A stretch of 8,059 nt of DNA from a virus. Lineage: Duplodnaviria; Heunggongvirae; Uroviricota; Caudoviricetes. The translations under genes and the position numbers were made by a program. The stretch lies in the IMG/VR virus record IMGVR_UViG_2778261541_000003; one strand, given 5' to 3'. Positions within the stretch are counted from its first letter, which is position 1. Each line of letters begins with the position of its first letter. This document shows positions 651 to 6,118 of the stretch, piece by piece. Below the pieces are notes generated by a model. The model worked only from the letters and a program-made list of their open reading frames with translations, was not told the origin of the DNA and searched no databases.

Positions 651-1082
651 CTATTCAGGTATTTCAATTCCAAAACCATCTGCATCCCATGAGTTTTCAC
701 AGATGATGTAACCTAGTTCATTGAGCTTATTAAATGTTTTTTCAAAGATGATCTGGTAATCATTATCTGCAAGTGATTCCAGTTCAAGGTCATTAAGGTT
801 TATATAAAAACTTGTATGTCCAAGTGTTATTTTCTTATTGATTTCATTAAAAGTTCTTTTGAAAATAATATTTGATATTTCATGCCGTGCATTGTTTGCA
901 ATAATTTTTGCTTCATAAGCAGAAATTACGTCATCTTCATGAATATCTTTCAGAAAGCTGGTGTCAAGACGTTGTACTATTTCAGCGTTCATTGAGCGCT
1001 TATTGGCTTTTGCAGAAATTTCTATTTTTTCTTTTACTTCAACGGGAAGTCTGATCCTTAGTTGTGGATCTTCTCTGCTCAT
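651..1082 (-). CDS. mnt: Mnt-like ribbon-helix-helix (Arc/MetJ superfamily) repressor with an extra ~95-aa C-terminal domain of unknown function
   Basis: ORF track 651..1112 starts at TTG; in-frame ATG at 1082..1080 preceded by GGTGA. N-terminus MSREDPQLRIRLPVEVKEKIEISAKANKRSMNAEIVQRLD aligns closely with P22 Mnt as I recall it (MARDDPHFNFRMPMEVREKLKFRAEANGRSMNSELLQIV). Divergent from an arc-ant pair as in P22 immI. Confidence 0.8.
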   Translation of the reverse strand: MSREDPQLRIRLPVEVKEKIEISAKANKRSMNAEIVQRLDTSFLKDIHEDDVISAYEAKIIANNARHEISNIIFKRTFNEINKKITLGHTSFYINLNDLELESLADNDYQIIFEKTFNKLNELGYIICENSWDADGFGIEIPE

Positions 1083-1119
1083 GTTCTTCACCAAATATTG
1101 AGTTACTTGCAATGATTGA

Positions 1120-1370: not shown

Positions 1371-1442
1371 AACAGCGAAGCCCAACGGTGGCCAGACCGT
1401 CAGGGCTTCAGTATCGTAAAACTACGTATAGGAATTAACGAC
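1367..1442 (-). ncRNA. Candidate sar-like antisense RNA covering the ant ribosome-binding site
   Basis: Minus-strand sigma70-like promoter (-35 TTGATA, 17-bp spacer, -10 TATACT) predicts a start near 1441-1443. The transcript would be antisense to the ant SD (AGGAA 1430-1434) and end at a minus-strand hairpin GAAGCCC...GGGCTTC (1377-1409) followed by GCUGUUUUAU. Predicted length ~75 nt, comparable to P22 sar (~68 nt, from memory). Confidence 0.5.
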
Positions 1443-2387
1443 ATGACGAGTATAGCAACAGCGGTATCTACTATCAACGTGCCATTCCACGGCGCAGAAC
1501 TTTATGTTGTCAATCACAACGGAGAACCGTACACCCCAATGAAACCTATCGTTGAAGGCATGGGTATGGATTGGGCTTCACAGTTTACGAAAATGAAGCA
1601 GCGGTTTAAAACCTGCATTGTGAAAATCACAATGCAGCTTCCTGGGGATGAACAGCGCCGTGAGATTATTTGTTTGGCACTTCGCAAACTTGCTGGCTGG
1701 TTGCAAACCATCAGCCCTAACAAAGTCCGCCCTGAAATCCGCGACAAGGTAATCCAGTATCAGGAAGAGTGTGACGATGTTCTCTACGAGTACTGGACTA
1801 AAGGCCATGTGGTTAACCCACGCAAAGCTAAAAAGGCGTTGCCGGGTAAAATAACCACTGAACAGCAGGAAGCCATTAAACAACTCGTCATGAGTCGCGG
1901 TCAGTCTCTGCCAAAAGAAAAACAGGCTAAGGCGATGATCACCATGTGGTCGTCACTGAAATCTCATTTTGGCTGTTCGTACAAAGAAATTGATGAAGAT
2001 CAATTCGCCGAAGCGTTGTCTCTTGTTGCTCGGGTTCCGCTTGAAGGGGAGCATCTCCCTGCTGGATCTGCATCAGAGAATGATGAAGTGGCAGTCAAGA
2101 TGTTAGATGCGCTTCGTGAGGCAATTAAAACACAGACAAAATGTTATGGTTATCCGCTGAAGCCCGGCTACCGCAGTCTGATTCATTCGCCGTCTGGTGT
2201 TCTCGGCCTGACGGAGAACTCACTGCTGATGAATCTGCTTAACCAGTTACAGGACGACGGGCACGATGTATCGGGCGCGGCGGCGGAGCTGACCACCATG
2301 TTCTGCTACATCGTCGGTGTGAGCAAATGCCTGCGTGATATCCAGACCCACGCGGAGTACATCAACGACAAGGCTGGGTTCTTCTGA
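1443..2387 (+). CDS. ant: Phage antirepressor (Ant; P22-antirepressor-like N-terminal domain plus conserved C-terminal domain)
   Basis: 314-aa ORF; AGGAA 8 nt upstream of ATG. Follows arc as in immI. N-terminal region (...LAGWLQTISPNKVRPEIRDKVIQYQEECDDVLYEYWTKG) resembles the P22 antirepressor N-domain family as I recall it. C-terminal ~80 aa are shared with two other genes in the window. Confidence 0.88.
   Translation: MTSIATAVSTINVPFHGAELYVVNHNGEPYTPMKPIVEGMGMDWASQFTKMKQRFKTCIVKITMQLPGDEQRREIICLALRKLAGWLQTISPNKVRPEIRDKVIQYQEECDDVLYEYWTKGHVVNPRKAKKALPGKITTEQQEAIKQLVMSRGQSLPKEKQAKAMITMWSSLKSHFGCSYKEIDEDQFAEALSLVARVPLEGEHLPAGSASENDEVAVKMLDALREAIKTQTKCYGYPLKPGYRSLIHSPSGVLGLTENSLLMNLLNQLQDDGHDVSGAAAELTTMFCYIVGVSKCLRDIQTHAEYINDKAGFF
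1449..1477 (-). promoter_or_regulatory. Candidate sigma70 promoter for the sar-like antisense RNA
   Basis: -35 TTGATA = rc of 1472-1477; 17-bp spacer; -10 TATACT = rc of 1449-1454. Lies inside the first codons of ant. Confidence 0.5.
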
Positions 2388-2422: not shown

Positions 2423-2533
2423 CTGTACAGATTGCAGACTGTGGGTGAATAGCGTACTATTACCTCAAGGGTAAGAAAGCATTTTTAATCTTCCCTTCAA
2501 AACGCGTCCTGTAGCCAAACATGGGAGGACGAA

Positions 2534-3630: not shown

Positions 3631-3650
3631 GGAAAACTCCTGATGTGCTT

Positions 3651-3818
3651 CTATTTGGAGCGAAATGCCGCCTTGAAGTCGCTAAAAGATGTTCCTGTCT
3701 GGTAAACCATATCCTTGTCGCGCTCTTTGCTTGCGCGACCAAGCATAACTTTTCCAATGACATCCCAGCATTGCTTGGCTTGTTCATTGTGCTGAGTACG
3801 ATTTTTCAACGCTGTCAT
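3651..3818 (-). CDS. Small hypothetical protein (55 aa), first gene of a two-gene minus-strand operon; not in the ORF track (below its length cut-off)
   Basis: Hand translation of minus strand from ATG at 3818..3816: MTALKNRTQHNEQAKQCWDVIGKVMLGRASKERDKDMVYQTGTSFSDFKAAFRSK, stop at 3651-3653. Strong AGGAGG SD (rc of 3825-3830) 6 nt upstream. Stop lies 20 nt before the SD/TTG of the next gene. Confidence 0.45.
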   Translation of the reverse strand: MTALKNRTQHNEQAKQCWDVIGKVMLGRASKERDKDMVYQTGTSFSDFKAAFRSK

Positions 3819-3874
3819 ATCGCGCCTCCTTTACCTTTAAGGTAATATTACGCGAATCTACATCACATCGCCAA
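3819..3874 (-). promoter_or_regulatory. Candidate sigma70 promoter with palindromic operator for the 3651-3818 / 3187-3630 operon
   Basis: Minus strand: -35 TTGGCG (rc of 3869-3874), 18-bp spacer, -10 TAATAT (rc of 3845-3850), immediately followed by perfect 15-bp palindrome TTACCTTTAAGGTAA (3831-3845) over the predicted start site, then AGGAGG. Confidence 0.5.
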
Positions 3875-3903: not shown

Positions 3904-4141
3904 GCCGCCCGTCAGAAGAATCCTGCTTTGTCGCTGATGTACTCCGCGTGCGTCTGGATATCACGCAGGCATTTGCTCACACCGACGATGTAGCAGAACA
4001 TGGTGGTCAGCTCCGCCGCCGCGCCCGATACATCGTGCCCGTCGTCCTGTAACTGGTTAAGCAGATTCATCAGCAGTGAGTTCTCCGTCAGGCCGAGAAC
4101 ACCAGACGGCGAGTGAATCAGGCTGCGGTAGCCGGGCTTCA
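3882..4141. repeat. Inverted repeat copy B (partner of 2157-2418)
   Basis: Reverse complement matches copy A; covers the last ~77 codons of the second antirepressor plus its terminator hairpin. Confidence 0.9.
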
Positions 4142-4568
4142 GTGGGGCGCTGTATTCTTTTTTGTCTTCCAGCTTGATCGCCTCCATAATGGCGGGCATG
4201 AAGCCTGACAAGACCTTCTCCACTTTTGTTTCTTGTTGTCTTAAACGTTTCTCGCATTCAATGAAGTAGCGTCGCACCTGGCGACCTTTTTCGTTACGCT
4301 CGACCATCGCCAGCTCTTTGGCTGTATCAAGGGTGAGGTGGTACTCTTTGCGGTTGTGGCCGCCTCTACCAGATGTTTGCTTTCCCAAATTGGAAAGCAA
4401 AATATAGTCTTGATTTTCAATGAATTCGTATTCTGATATGCGATTTGTAATCCATGCTGCAAACACCTTTTTAACACCTAAAAAAGCGTGCAGATCGCGG
4501 GCATTACAAAGTAGGGCTGTTTCGTTAGATATAGTGCCGTTGAATACGGGGATGAGTTGAGCGTTCAT
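3912..4568 (-). CDS. Phage antirepressor, second copy: different N-terminal domain (Bro-N/ORF6N/Rha-like, tentative) fused to the same C-terminal domain as Ant
   Basis: 218-aa ORF; ATG at 4568..4566 with GGAGA SD (rc of 4576-4580). N-terminal part (...[33 protein letters not shown]...[32 protein letters not shown]) resembles phage antirepressor N-terminal families. C-terminal 77 aa are ~97% identical to Ant (1443-2387). Confidence 0.88.
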
Positions 4569-4596
4569 GATGGCGTCTCCACTTAGCGAATTACAT

Positions 4597-4804
4597 CACC
4601 ACCGCTGAGACCAATCAGATGGTGGTGAACTGAACGGAGTTGGTCTTACCGGCCTAAGTGGTACCGGCGTCCTTTCGGACCCCCATTCAGCCCACCATAA
4701 TTCTGGCATGACTGTGCTATACGCATAAAAAAACCACGTCTGGCGTGGTATGCGCCACTTAGTAATCCGGGAGACCAATCCCGGCACTGGATTTTGCCAG
4801 TGCC
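4597..4804 (-). other. Hairpin-rich untranslated leader upstream of the second antirepressor
   Basis: H1 at 4597-4627: CACCACC-g-CTGA-[gaccaa]-TCAG-at-GGTGGTG. H4 at 4767-4784: CCGGGA-[gaccaa]-TCCCGG, same hexaloop. H5 at 4783-4804: GGCACTGG-attttg-CCAGTGCC. No convincing ORF in this ~400 bp (track ORF 4596..4928 rejected). Confidence 0.45.
4726..4749 (-). terminator. Candidate intrinsic terminator or attenuator within the leader (minus strand)
   Basis: Minus-strand RNA ACCACG-CCAGA-CGUGGU followed by UUUUUUU (plus-strand A-run 4727-4733). Sits ~160 nt upstream of the second antirepressor start codon. Confidence 0.45.
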
Positions 4805-4839
4805 CGATTACTATGGCACAAGAGGAGTGCAATGTAAAT

Positions 4840-4948
4840 TTACCGCAAAGGTAATGATAAACGCGAAGAAATATTAAAATCAACCGTATTTGGTTGATTG
4901 CGTTTAACGCTTGATCACCTGAAAGCAAGATATTACCTTTAAGGTAAT
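4840..4948. promoter_or_regulatory. Two palindromic TTACC-N5-GGTAA operator-like sites
   Basis: Site 1 TTACC-gcaaa-GGTAA at 4840-4854. Site 2 is a perfect 17-bp palindrome ATTACCTTTAAGGTAAT at 4932-4948. Centres are ~94 bp apart. Site 2 lies ~20 bp upstream of the start of ORF 4968-5696 and at the distal end of the minus-strand leader. Confidence 0.5.
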
Positions 4949-4967
4949 GTTATTGTGAGGAAAAGCA

Positions 4968-5696
4968 ATGGAAGTTTTCTGGATAGTTGTTGGTGTGGTT
5001 GCGGTGATTATTTACGTTATCAACCAGAACAAGACTAAGATCTCTGATCGTACGGTCGTTAATCATAACAAAACGATAAAGACCGAAGATGGGGAGATAA
5101 CGATTAATCGTACACAGGTGATAGAACACACCTCTACTCAGTTTCAAAAAACTGGAGGTAATGCGCCTAATATTTCCGCACCTCCTGCTTATGATAGTGC
5201 GGTAATCCAGACATATTATAAACAGCAGGAGTTAGCAAAAGAGAGGCAACTGATTCAGCCAAAGCCGTTTACAGCTGAGCTTCCACCTGGAGTGTCAACG
5301 CGTCCGGCATATCATGGAAGATTCCCTGGTGATGACATATCGTCTCAGTCATCTAAAAAAGCACCTCAGGCAGTATCAGAGCCAGCAAGAATACCTTCTG
5401 TATCGCCGCCAAAAGAAGAATCAGCTAACAGAGTTTCAAGTGGTAGCAAGCAGTGCTTGCGATGCAGAATAAACCTACCATATGAAAAATTCAGGAAATC
5501 GTCAAAAAATCCAGATGGATTGACTAAGTGGTGTGCAAGGTGTCTCGATGGCCCAAAGAATACACGCCATATGAAGTGGTGCCCAATTTGTAATGTCCGC
5601 AGAAAACGAACAAGCTTTTACCCTAATAATCAAAATGCGGATGGCTTAATGGCATGGTGCAAAACGTGCTGGGACGAGCACAAAGCGAAACGATAG
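4968..5696 (+). CDS. Membrane-anchored protein with Pro/Ser-rich linker and C-terminal tandem CxxC-N20-WCxxC (zinc-ribbon-like) motifs; function unknown
   Basis: 242-aa ORF; GAGG 7 nt upstream of ATG. N-terminal TM helix MEVFWIVVGVVAVIIYVI followed by NQNKTK (positive-inside rule suggests a cytoplasmic C-domain). Two Cys motifs: CLRCRINLPYEKFRKSSKNPDGLTKWCARC and CPICNVRRKRTSFYPNNQNADGLMAWCKTC. Terminator follows. Confidence 0.75.
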   Translation: MEVFWIVVGVVAVIIYVINQNKTKISDRTVVNHNKTIKTEDGEITINRTQVIEHTSTQFQKTGGNAPNISAPPAYDSAVIQTYYKQQELAKERQLIQPKPFTAELPPGVSTRPAYHGRFPGDDISSQSSKKAPQAVSEPARIPSVSPPKEESANRVSSGSKQCLRCRINLPYEKFRKSSKNPDGLTKWCARCLDGPKNTRHMKWCPICNVRRKRTSFYPNNQNADGLMAWCKTCWDEHKAKR

Positions 5697-6051: not shown

Positions 6052-6118
6052 ATCACCTGAAAGGTAATATCTGTTCGTATTTATGGGTTATCTATCCATA
6101 TATGGTTTTTAAGGTAAT
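6052..6118 (+). promoter_or_regulatory. Repeated motifs upstream of the tail-fibre gene (ATCACCTGAAAG plus two AAGGTAAT half-sites)
   Basis: ATCACCTGAAAG-GTAATAT at 6052-6069 (TCACC-tgaaa-GGTAA, imperfect palindrome) and TTTTTAAGGTAATAG at 6106-6120. Same motif family as 3831-3845, 4840-4854 and 4932-4948. Confidence 0.4.

Follow-up and report, generated by a model that had tools for sequence, protein, structure and literature searches.

The window analysed here, meaning the whole stretch of 8,059 nt, carries on its minus strand ant, a gene whose product has the RefSeq name ‘phage antirepressor Ant’. An initial annotation had described a structured leader of some 400 nt ahead of this second antirepressor gene, with a membrane-protein gene as the upstream neighbour of the leader. 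That neighbour (4968-5696), however, is on the plus strand and is transcribed away from ant; since the two genes are divergent, only about 235 nt (4803 to 4569) count as transcribed leader, and the rest (4804-4967) is a divergent promoter/operator region. When the minus strand of 4540-4970 was read, the hairpins, the terminator and the alternative pairing reported earlier were all present where they had been placed. The features of the locus are collected in Table 1.

Table 1. Features of the ant leader region, numbered as in the window.
Feature	Position	Strand	Basis
Candidate operator, palindrome TTACC-N5-GGTAA	4840..4854		Abuts the -35 box
Predicted sigma-70 promoter of the leader/c4/ant operon	4810..4838	-	Promoter scan; geometry as at P1c4/P51b and other loci
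IsrK-like leader RNA (c4 a1b1 leader plus terminator)	4727..4803	-	Rfam isrK; covariation of hairpin 1
a1 target box UUGGUCU	4772..4778	-	Loop of hairpin 2; complementary to a'
b1 target box CUAAGUGG	4755..4762	-	Linker before the terminator; complementary to b' loop
Intrinsic terminator, stem ACCACG/CGUGGU, loop CCAGA, U7	4727..4749	-	Terminator prediction
c4 antisense RNA	4618..4702	-	Rfam C4; minimum free energy (MFE); covariation
b' recognition loop CCACUUAG	4654..4661	-	Loop of c4 hairpin; pairs with b1 and b2
a' recognition segment AGACCAA	4640..4646	-	Single-stranded junction of c4; pairs with a1 and a2
a2 hairpin, with a2 UUGGUCU (4614-4608) in the loop	4597..4627	-	Conservation of outer and inner helix
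b2 target box CUAAGUGG (4586-4579) overlapping the ant Shine-Dalgarno GGAG (4580-4577)	4577..4586	-	Complementary to b'
ant, 218-aa AntA/AntB-type antirepressor, ATG at 4568	3912..4568	-	Pfam AntA, 4.2e-26

The predicted promoter consists of a -35 box TTTACA (4838-4833), a 17-nt spacer and a TG-extended -10 box CATAGT (4815-4810) that ends 7 nt ahead of the first hairpin of the leader, which would place the start of transcription near 4803. The spacing between promoter and hairpin is the same at the annotated promoter P1c4 (P51b) of phage P1 and in the TTGAC-17-TATAnT boxes of other loci. The palindrome next to the -35 box may act as an operator; a second copy (4933-4947) lies in front of the divergent plus strand gene, and the window contains five copies where 0.2 would be expected.

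Two hairpins of the leader carry an identical UUGGUC loop, as had been noticed before: CCGGGA-UUGGUC-UCCCGG (4784-4767) and CACCACC-AU-CUGA-UUGGUC-UCAG-C-GGUGGUG (the a2 hairpin). They are identical beyond the loop as well, sharing the 10-nt sequence GAGACCAATC as an exact direct repeat (4607-4616 and 4771-4780); the sequence CTAAGTGG is present four times in the window against 0.2 expected, a count seen in none of 200 shuffles. The terminator between the two hairpins is likewise real, about 160 nt ahead of the start codon of ant; its hairpin ACCACG-CCAGA-CGUGGU occupies 4749-4733 and its U7 tract 4733-4727, the first U closing the stem. Folding of the 251-nt stretch confirmed that it is more stable than its shuffles (z = -4.9, with 0 of 200 equally stable), and a tRNA/tmRNA scan gave no match.

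The leader belongs to known RNA families and is not a novel structured element. The upstream part matches isrK (RF01394) with 67.7 bits, where 50 is the gathering score; in it hairpin 1 (4803-4784) and hairpin 2 (4784-4767) precede a linker and the terminator. This part has the two 5' hairpins, the Rho-independent terminator and the hairpin covariation of the family, as well as the context of the type locus, with a C4-like RNA and then an antirepressor gene following directly, in a layout identical to that of Gifsy-1. The related model c4-a1b1 (RF03163) gave 39.9 bits at 4816-4764, below its gathering score of 46.7, though both hairpins and the a1 loop are present; at the orthologous positions of P1 (51.0 bits), Gifsy-1 (48.1), CP-1639 (50.5) and the homologous locus L065 (48.4) it passes.

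The downstream part matches C4 (RF01695) over its full length (1-87) with 61.2 bits, the gathering score being 45. This c4 RNA has a closing stem, a hairpin with a GAAA tetraloop, the b' hairpin and the a' junction, and has a tRNA-like stem with a CCA-containing 3' tail. Its MFE structure (-41.2 kcal/mol, z = -5.5) is the Rfam consensus, and all of its helices covary over 20 loci. As in other members of the C4 family, a' and b' are complementary to downstream a2 and b2 sites, one of which lies on a ribosome-binding site, and a further copy, a1/b1, lies upstream in the same transcript. The 8-nt b box and the 7-nt a box each occur three times in the window, exactly and in the correct orientations. 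A search of the window for extra c4 targets found only a lone b box at 5524-5531 on the plus strand, with no a box nearby, and this is taken as a chance occurrence. Where a single small RNA of about 200 nt had been offered as an alternative, small RNAs are indeed encoded, but they are predicted to be two, the IsrK-like RNA and c4, of about 80 nt each. The c4 RNA and the second box pair, CUAAGUGG/CCACUUAG, which overlaps the ribosome-binding site of ant, had been missed by the initial annotation.

In the MFE fold of the full-length leader, a1 and b1 are paired in cis with a' and b'. Because the 5' arm of the a2 hairpin is also the 3' arm of c4 (CACCACC), the a2 hairpin competes with the closing stem of c4. 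When c4 was cofolded with the leader or the IsrK-like RNA (RNAcofold), no net gain was predicted, because loop-loop contacts of the pseudoknot type fall outside the nearest-neighbour model; the local duplex energies, from -10.6 to -12.8 kcal/mol per box, are therefore the only usable values from cofolding. A further pairing, of GUCUC in a2 with GAGAC in the Shine-Dalgarno region, was dropped, being allele-specific and absent in the homologue L006.

Homologous loci were collected from phage genomes and IMG/VR contigs encoding relatives of Ant, isrK and C4 were located in them with Rfam, and 20 distinct modules, P1 included, were aligned with MAFFT. In every C4-type locus where isrK reaches its gathering score it lies 20-27 nt upstream of C4. 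The hairpins are conserved over the 20 loci and show compensatory changes, as was asked of homologues in the earlier work; covariation is seen in hairpin 1, the outer helix of the a2 hairpin is paired in 97% of cases and carries a compensatory change in P1, and the inner helix of this hairpin covaries at three of four pairs.

The boxes themselves vary. Six different a-box sequences occur among the 20 loci, and in every locus a1 and a' change in concert, as does a2 wherever it is correctly aligned; MAFFT misaligned the a' and a2 of P1 and the a2 of APSE, which accounts for the few ‘unpaired’ cells in the a-box counts, and the a2 sequences of P1 and APSE-7, although shifted in the alignment, still match a1. 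Pairing of a1 with a' is retained in 96.4% of cases over the 20 loci, with compensatory changes at five of the seven pairs and a covariation score of 0.517; shuffles gave 0.148 and slid controls no more than 0.153. For a' with a2 the corresponding values are 94.2%, four of six pairs and 0.398 against 0.116. The b boxes vary in length and were also misaligned, and cognate and non-cognate run lengths were therefore compared in place of pair counts. With G-U pairs allowed, the cognate runs average 8.25 nt for b':b1 and 8.75 nt for b':b2, as against 4.62 and 5.74 nt for the non-cognate ones. In 16 of the 20 loci the b2 box lies at the Shine-Dalgarno sequence and ends 8-10 nt ahead of the ATG; in another three it falls on the start codon, and in one homologue, IdasGreatGrand, no recognisable b2 was found.

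A natural allele swap is provided by L006, where a1, a' and a2 read UUGGCGU, ACGCCAA and UUGGCGU and the b boxes are the same as in the window; its Ant is the same protein as that of the window (100% identity over the best tblastn segment), so that such pairs, here UUGGUCU versus UUGGCGU, are natural material for tests of RNA-RNA specificity. The three a boxes co-vary with one another across the loci, and this pattern of substitution, as far as sequence comparison can show, makes recognition an RNA-RNA matter, carried out by an RNA encoded between the two hairpins, and rules out a protein reading a fixed loop sequence.

With a probability of about 0.92, the minus strand of this region carries a cassette of the P1/P7 immI type (the IsrK-C4 immunity system), in which c4 RNA would block the translation of ant. 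This agrees with the earlier view that the minus strand bears a non-coding leader regulating the second antirepressor.

Transcription attenuation, which the initial annotation had put forward, is the alternative that survives best. In the isolated 77-nt RNA the alternative GGCG/CGCC pairing that it had pointed out is predicted as the MFE form, at -29.4 kcal/mol for the form with the UGGCG:CGCCA helix versus -26.5 kcal/mol for the terminator form. This helix overlaps b1 and competes with the terminator stem, and in this allele the predicted probability of the terminator, calculated separately with the correct stem, rises from 0.016 in the free RNA to 0.84 when b1 is blocked. As the main control, attenuation in the style of P4 and N15 would mean that c4 acts on nascent a1/b1 to promote termination at 4749-4727 and that read-through decides the expression of ant. 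The CI RNA of P4 terminates transcription prematurely by pairing with seqA and seqC, as quoted in PMC4825925, and N15 and P4 are considered to have structurally homologous systems (PMC3632133). In the 11 homologues with a cleanly defined stem, however, the terminator is already dominant in the free RNA (0.53-0.97) and blocking of b1 has little effect; this comparison leaves out 9 of the 20 loci, including the window, L006, L056, yong2 and P1, and the alignment is too gappy in that stretch for terminator/antiterminator pairs to be counted from it. Furthermore, the near-identical leader of L006 folds to the terminator form, the energy gap in the window is only about 3 kcal/mol, and the fixed position of b2 on the Shine-Dalgarno sequence or the start codon argues for translational control. 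Since the terminator dominates in most homologues when free, regulated attenuation finds no support as the core mechanism conserved among them, and is unlikely to be the main control.

It is a little less unlikely, though still doubtful, that attenuation is an added layer in this allele rather than an alternative, and not a conserved mechanism. A tentative model of such a layer can be drawn from the predicted folds, with somewhat better but still poor odds: the leader of this allele may be a c4-sensing RNA switch, in which the b1 helix masks the 5' arm of the terminator and binding of c4 to the nascent leader forces termination. If this were so, c4 binding would yield more of the short IsrK-like decoy and less c4 and ant, and low c4 would permit read-through; the switch and the decoy together would make up a circuit that needs no protein, regulates itself, is possibly bistable and fixes the threshold at which the antirepressor is released, and E. 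coli prophages would fall into heteroimmunity classes according to their box alleles.

The identical loops had also been read as sites for one RNA-binding protein. They are indeed identical and sit on stable stems, and the Rfam family name records that IsrK was first found as an Hfq-associated RNA, but the loop is not conserved: its six a-box versions each change together with the complementary a' in c4, whereas the site of a protein should stay constant, or vary in step with the protein rather than with an RNA segment. This reading is very improbable; what stands of the claim is the single trans-acting factor, which would be the c4 antisense RNA encoded between the hairpins. Least probable of all is that the region codes for protein, either as a 110-aa ORF with a TTG start (4596-4928) or through an ‘Ash family’ extension at the N-terminal end of the downstream gene. 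ORFs are annotated here in several deposited genomes, and the Pfam family Phage_ASH matches such ORFs in yong2, phiP27, Stx2_14040 and 2H10; yet the 110-aa ORF of the window has no Pfam match, the Ash frame, that of the downstream ATG, is stopped in 15 of 20 loci (the window and P1 among them), the leaders range from 229 to 247 nt with length differences that are not multiples of three, and substitutions follow RNA pairing. No coding frame is conserved, in agreement with the original remark that the region has no credible ORF.

The element of the window, an immI-type cassette, is thus an ordinary, already described phage immunity cassette with box alleles of its own and no new kind of regulator. 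The IsrK-C4 system has been described for P1, P7, P4, N15, Gifsy-1 and APSE, and bears the single name ‘IsrK-C4 immunity system’ in the literature (PMC3632133; PMC4825925); Barquist 2013 is among the earlier descriptions of the element. The c4 RNA and its a and b sites go back to Citron & Schuster 1990, as reported in PMC12197685, and the C4 and c4-a1b1 motifs to Weinberg 2010, a passage of which also cites the proposal that a1/b1 competes with a2/b2.

The immI region of P1 and P7 has the same order of parts as the window: promoter, hairpin 1, hairpin with a1 in the loop, b1, U-tailed hairpin, c4, a2, b2 on the Shine-Dalgarno sequence, and gene. The P1 record annotates P1c4 (P51b), a1, b1, c4, a2, b2 and icd in the same order and with the same spacing. 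Shared as well are the c4 fold, the pairing of the a boxes with the a' junction and of the b boxes with the b' hairpin loop, the antirepressor as target, and the setting of specificity by box sequences, as in P1/P7 heteroimmunity. In P1 the a1 and a2 boxes are UUGACAG (a1 in a hairpin loop) and b1 and b2 are GUUAGUG (b2 on the icd Shine-Dalgarno sequence), with CUGUCAA (a', junction) and CACUAAC (b', hairpin loop) in c4, as compared to UUGGUCU and CUAAGUGG in the window. The P1 leader matches both c4-a1b1 (51 bits) and isrK (35 bits), which indicates that ‘IsrK’ is the a1b1 leader plus a U-tailed hairpin. The two loci also differ in the antirepressor (Ant1/2 in P1, an AntA-type Ant in the window), in the site near the promoter (a C1 site in P1, a different palindrome adjoining the promoter in the window) and in the prophage, P1 being a plasmid prophage and that of the window resembling phiV10 and TL-2011b.

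In the strict P1 arrangement icd lies between c4 and ant and acts by polarity, and in this the window departs from it: no icd-type ORF is present between c4 and ant, and b2 lies directly on the ribosome-binding site of ant, whose ATG follows. Nor is there an upstream ORF of the orf45 type, the equivalent frame (AUG GUG GGC UGA) being closed after three codons. Therefore repression at this locus must act directly on ant, and neither the P1 step, in which a block to icd translation is followed by Rho termination, nor the translational coupling through orf45 of Gifsy-1 can apply literally.

The isrK-orf45(STnc1160)-anrP locus of Gifsy-1, which was dissected by Hershko-Shalev 2016 (PMC4825925), shares with the window the layout of isrK, terminator, C4 and antirepressor gene; by analogy, the antirepressor mRNA of the window would also be carried on a read-through transcript and the short RNA could act in trans. 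In that phage isrK lies at 34316-34240 (79.3 bits; c4-a1b1 48.1 bits) and C4 at 34214-34131 (69 bits), where it coincides with ‘orf45’/STnc1160, and anrP begins at 34076. The compensatory mutants published for it, G28A/C162U and G31A/C159U (PMC4825925), map to the a1 loop and a', and the a1:a' pairing has thus been verified experimentally in a homologue. The ‘structure A’ of Gifsy-1, with a1 and a' paired in cis, is also the MFE fold of the window leader. The differences lie in the a and b boxes and in the surroundings, as the window has no antQ upstream and no isrJ match downstream within its limits.

The comparison extends to further phages. The CI RNA of P4 (seqA/seqC) and the CB RNA of N15 (antC) are described, like c4, as processed small RNAs encoded between two copies of their target, with a leader homologous to IsrK (PMC3632133; PMC4825925), but their output is premature termination of transcription, whereas the downstream target in the window covers a ribosome-binding site. 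In the APSE phages of Hamiltonella isrK, C4, a' and b' are annotated directly upstream of a Bro-N antirepressor-like gene (APSE-7 GenBank record; Rouil 2020, PMC7313666); the boxes (UUGAGAC/CUAACAAGG), the host and the family of the downstream protein differ. The sar RNA of P22 (RF00262) is also a small RNA that controls the ribosome-binding site of an antirepressor, ant, but it is a true cis-antisense RNA from the opposite strand, whereas c4 shares the strand of its target and works by way of short complementary boxes; a sar match is found elsewhere in the window, at 1374-1441.

From these parts the following course of events may be proposed. Transcription would start near 4803 from a promoter of the constitutive type, and most transcripts would stop at the terminator to give a 77-nt IsrK-like RNA bearing a1 and b1, while read-through RNA would comprise the c4 precursor, both downstream boxes (a2 and b2) and the ant mRNA. 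Once c4 is mature, its b' loop would pair with b2 and its a' segment with a2, which is displayed in a hairpin loop; the ribosome-binding site would be occluded, no antirepressor would be made, and lysogeny and immunity would be kept. The a1/b1 copy would compete for c4, in cis when part of the read-through RNA and in trans when carried by the short IsrK-like RNA, and such a decoy could relieve repression.

Two steps of this course, translational repression by c4 and processing of its precursor by RNase P, are proposed by analogy with P1. In P1 and P7 the synthesis of antirepressor is repressed by c4 RNA, which pairs around the ribosome-binding site and also sets heteroimmunity (Citron & Schuster 1990, as given in PMC12197685 and Weinberg 2010), and the c4 precursor is cut by RNase P (Hartmann 1995, as cited in PMC11143913). 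Read-through of the terminator and activation in trans by the short RNA are likewise suggested by Gifsy-1. There, a fraction of transcripts was found experimentally to read through the IsrK terminator into the antirepressor gene, the stable RNA STnc1160 is processed from the read-through transcript, over-expression of short IsrK raises antirepressor translation more than 100-fold, and both the binding of Hfq to Salmonella IsrK and its activation of the read-through mRNA in trans are experimental findings (PMC4825925).

The value of the result lies in annotation: several phage records, and apparently the Pfam family Phage_ASH, translate the cassette as protein, whereas the second antirepressor of this prophage would be held off by an RNA, and homo- or hetero-immunity between prophages at this locus should be predictable from the alleles of their a and b boxes. 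Each of the 77 retrieved ant loci of the AntA type has an RNA directly upstream, of the c4 type in 31 and of the sRNA-Xcc1 type in 46. The cassette is present in 465 of 5426 complete E. coli genomes, where it carries no ncRNA annotation in RefSeq.

The element of the published IsrK locus known as 'orf45' or STnc1160, which lies between isrK and the antirepressor in Gifsy-1 (34131-34214), is the C4 antisense RNA, as identified by its Rfam match of 69 bits. IsrK and c4 are given as separate systems in the paper describing IsrK (Hershko-Shalev 2016, PMC4825925) and in a 2025 review; the connection between them had already been made by Barquist 2013. In the annotated ORFs of four loci (Table), the match to the Pfam family Phage_ASH (PF10554, 'Ash protein family') is confined to the stretch that results from translating the isrK-c4 leader RNA in frame, and no match to it was found in the protein translated from the real start codon of the ORFs concerned. 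Furthermore, the Ash frame is closed in 15 of the 20 loci. PF10554 is probably a model of an over-extended ORF spanning a non-coding RNA.

Downstream of c4, RNAalifold proposes a conserved helix (window 4569-4603) in which GGUGGU (4603-4598) is paired with GCCAUC (4574-4569), the loop holding the b2 box and the Shine-Dalgarno sequence of ant. Alternatively, the GGUGGUG upstream of b2 can form a helix with the 3' arm of c4, and it therefore has two conserved partners that are mutually exclusive.

The C4 RNA is not the only one found at this position; in 46 of 77 AntA-type ant loci it is replaced by sRNA-Xcc1 (Rfam RF02221). The design of these loci is as in the C4 loci, with a leader hairpin and terminator followed by an RNA of ~87 nt with a closing stem, and with boxes of 6-9 nt that are repeated both upstream and on the Shine-Dalgarno sequence. 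These boxes co-vary: one locus, for example, has CUUCAAAG/CUUUGAAG where another has ACAAACAG/CUGUUUGU. In Rfam, sRNA-Xcc1 and C4 are not linked by a clan.

In phage IdasGreatGrand (666-715) the a1, a', a2 and b1 boxes all match, and a b2 box was not found near the start codon, where the longest run is 4 nt; the copy at this locus may have decayed or be wired differently. In the window, a fourth copy of CTAAGTGG is present at 5524-5531 (+), within the plus-strand ORF 4968-5696; a search of the window found no a box close to it and the copy is probably due to chance.

The DNA upstream of the c4 promoter contains a second promoter-like site and an inverted repeat (Table). Transcripts from the promoter-like site would contain 4813-4803, which is able to pair with 4770-4760, a pairing that is the counterpart of the optional 'third stem' described by Weinberg 2010. 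At the position of the inverted repeat the sequence differs in other loci and an inverted repeat is still formed; the repeat may act as an insulating terminator or serve as a binding site.

The palindrome TTACC-N5-GGTAA is present in five copies in the 8 kb of the window, compared to 0.2 expected (0 of 200 shuffles). Four of the five are intergenic, in gaps separating likely genes, and the fifth, at 3831-3845, runs into the end of a small unassigned ORF (3645-3845). The copy that adjoins the c4 promoter's -35 box is also located at the predicted start site of the promoter-like site, and another copy is 28 nt ahead of the divergent gene, whose ATG is at 4968. The set looks like a candidate dispersed operator for a single DNA-binding protein, an idea similar to the C1 operators of P1, which include one at the P1 c4 promoter. 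The promoter-like site together with the c4 promoter resembles the tandem promoters of P1, P51a (operator-controlled) and P51b.

Features of the window and of the comparison loci (L-numbers)
Feature	Locus	Coordinates	Strand	Detail
Promoter-like site TTGATT-18-TATCAT	window	4854-4883	-	44 nt upstream of c4 promoter
8-bp inverted repeat AATCAACC-N6-GGTTGATT	window	4878-4899		then U-rich run on minus strand
TTACC-N5-GGTAA	window	2460-2474, 3831-3845, 4840-4854, 4933-4947, 6053-6067
sar RNA match	window	1374-1441	-	45.2 bits (gathering score 43)
Antirepressor, P22_AR_N domain	window	1443-2387	+
Arc-like repressor	window	651-1112	-
sRNA-Xcc1	L024, L034, L039, L058, L063, L066, L067, L072, L078 and others			about 40-130 nt upstream of ant start
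ORF matching Phage_ASH	L088	288-971		homologous to window 4569-4810
ORF matching Phage_ASH	L092	431-1090		homologous to window 4569-4810
ORF matching Phage_ASH	L093	257-1090		homologous to window 4569-4810
ORF matching Phage_ASH	L095	331-876		homologous to window 4569-4810

A second immI, of the P22 type and made up of the sar RNA match, the antirepressor with the P22_AR_N domain and the Arc-like repressor (Table), is present in the same window as the c4 cassette; the prophage thus has two antirepressors, each with a different small-RNA control. On one IMG/VR contig (L077), Rfam domains D1-D4 of a group II intron (135 bits) were observed at 1946-2232, about 300 nt beyond the end of the tblastn match to the ant homologue.
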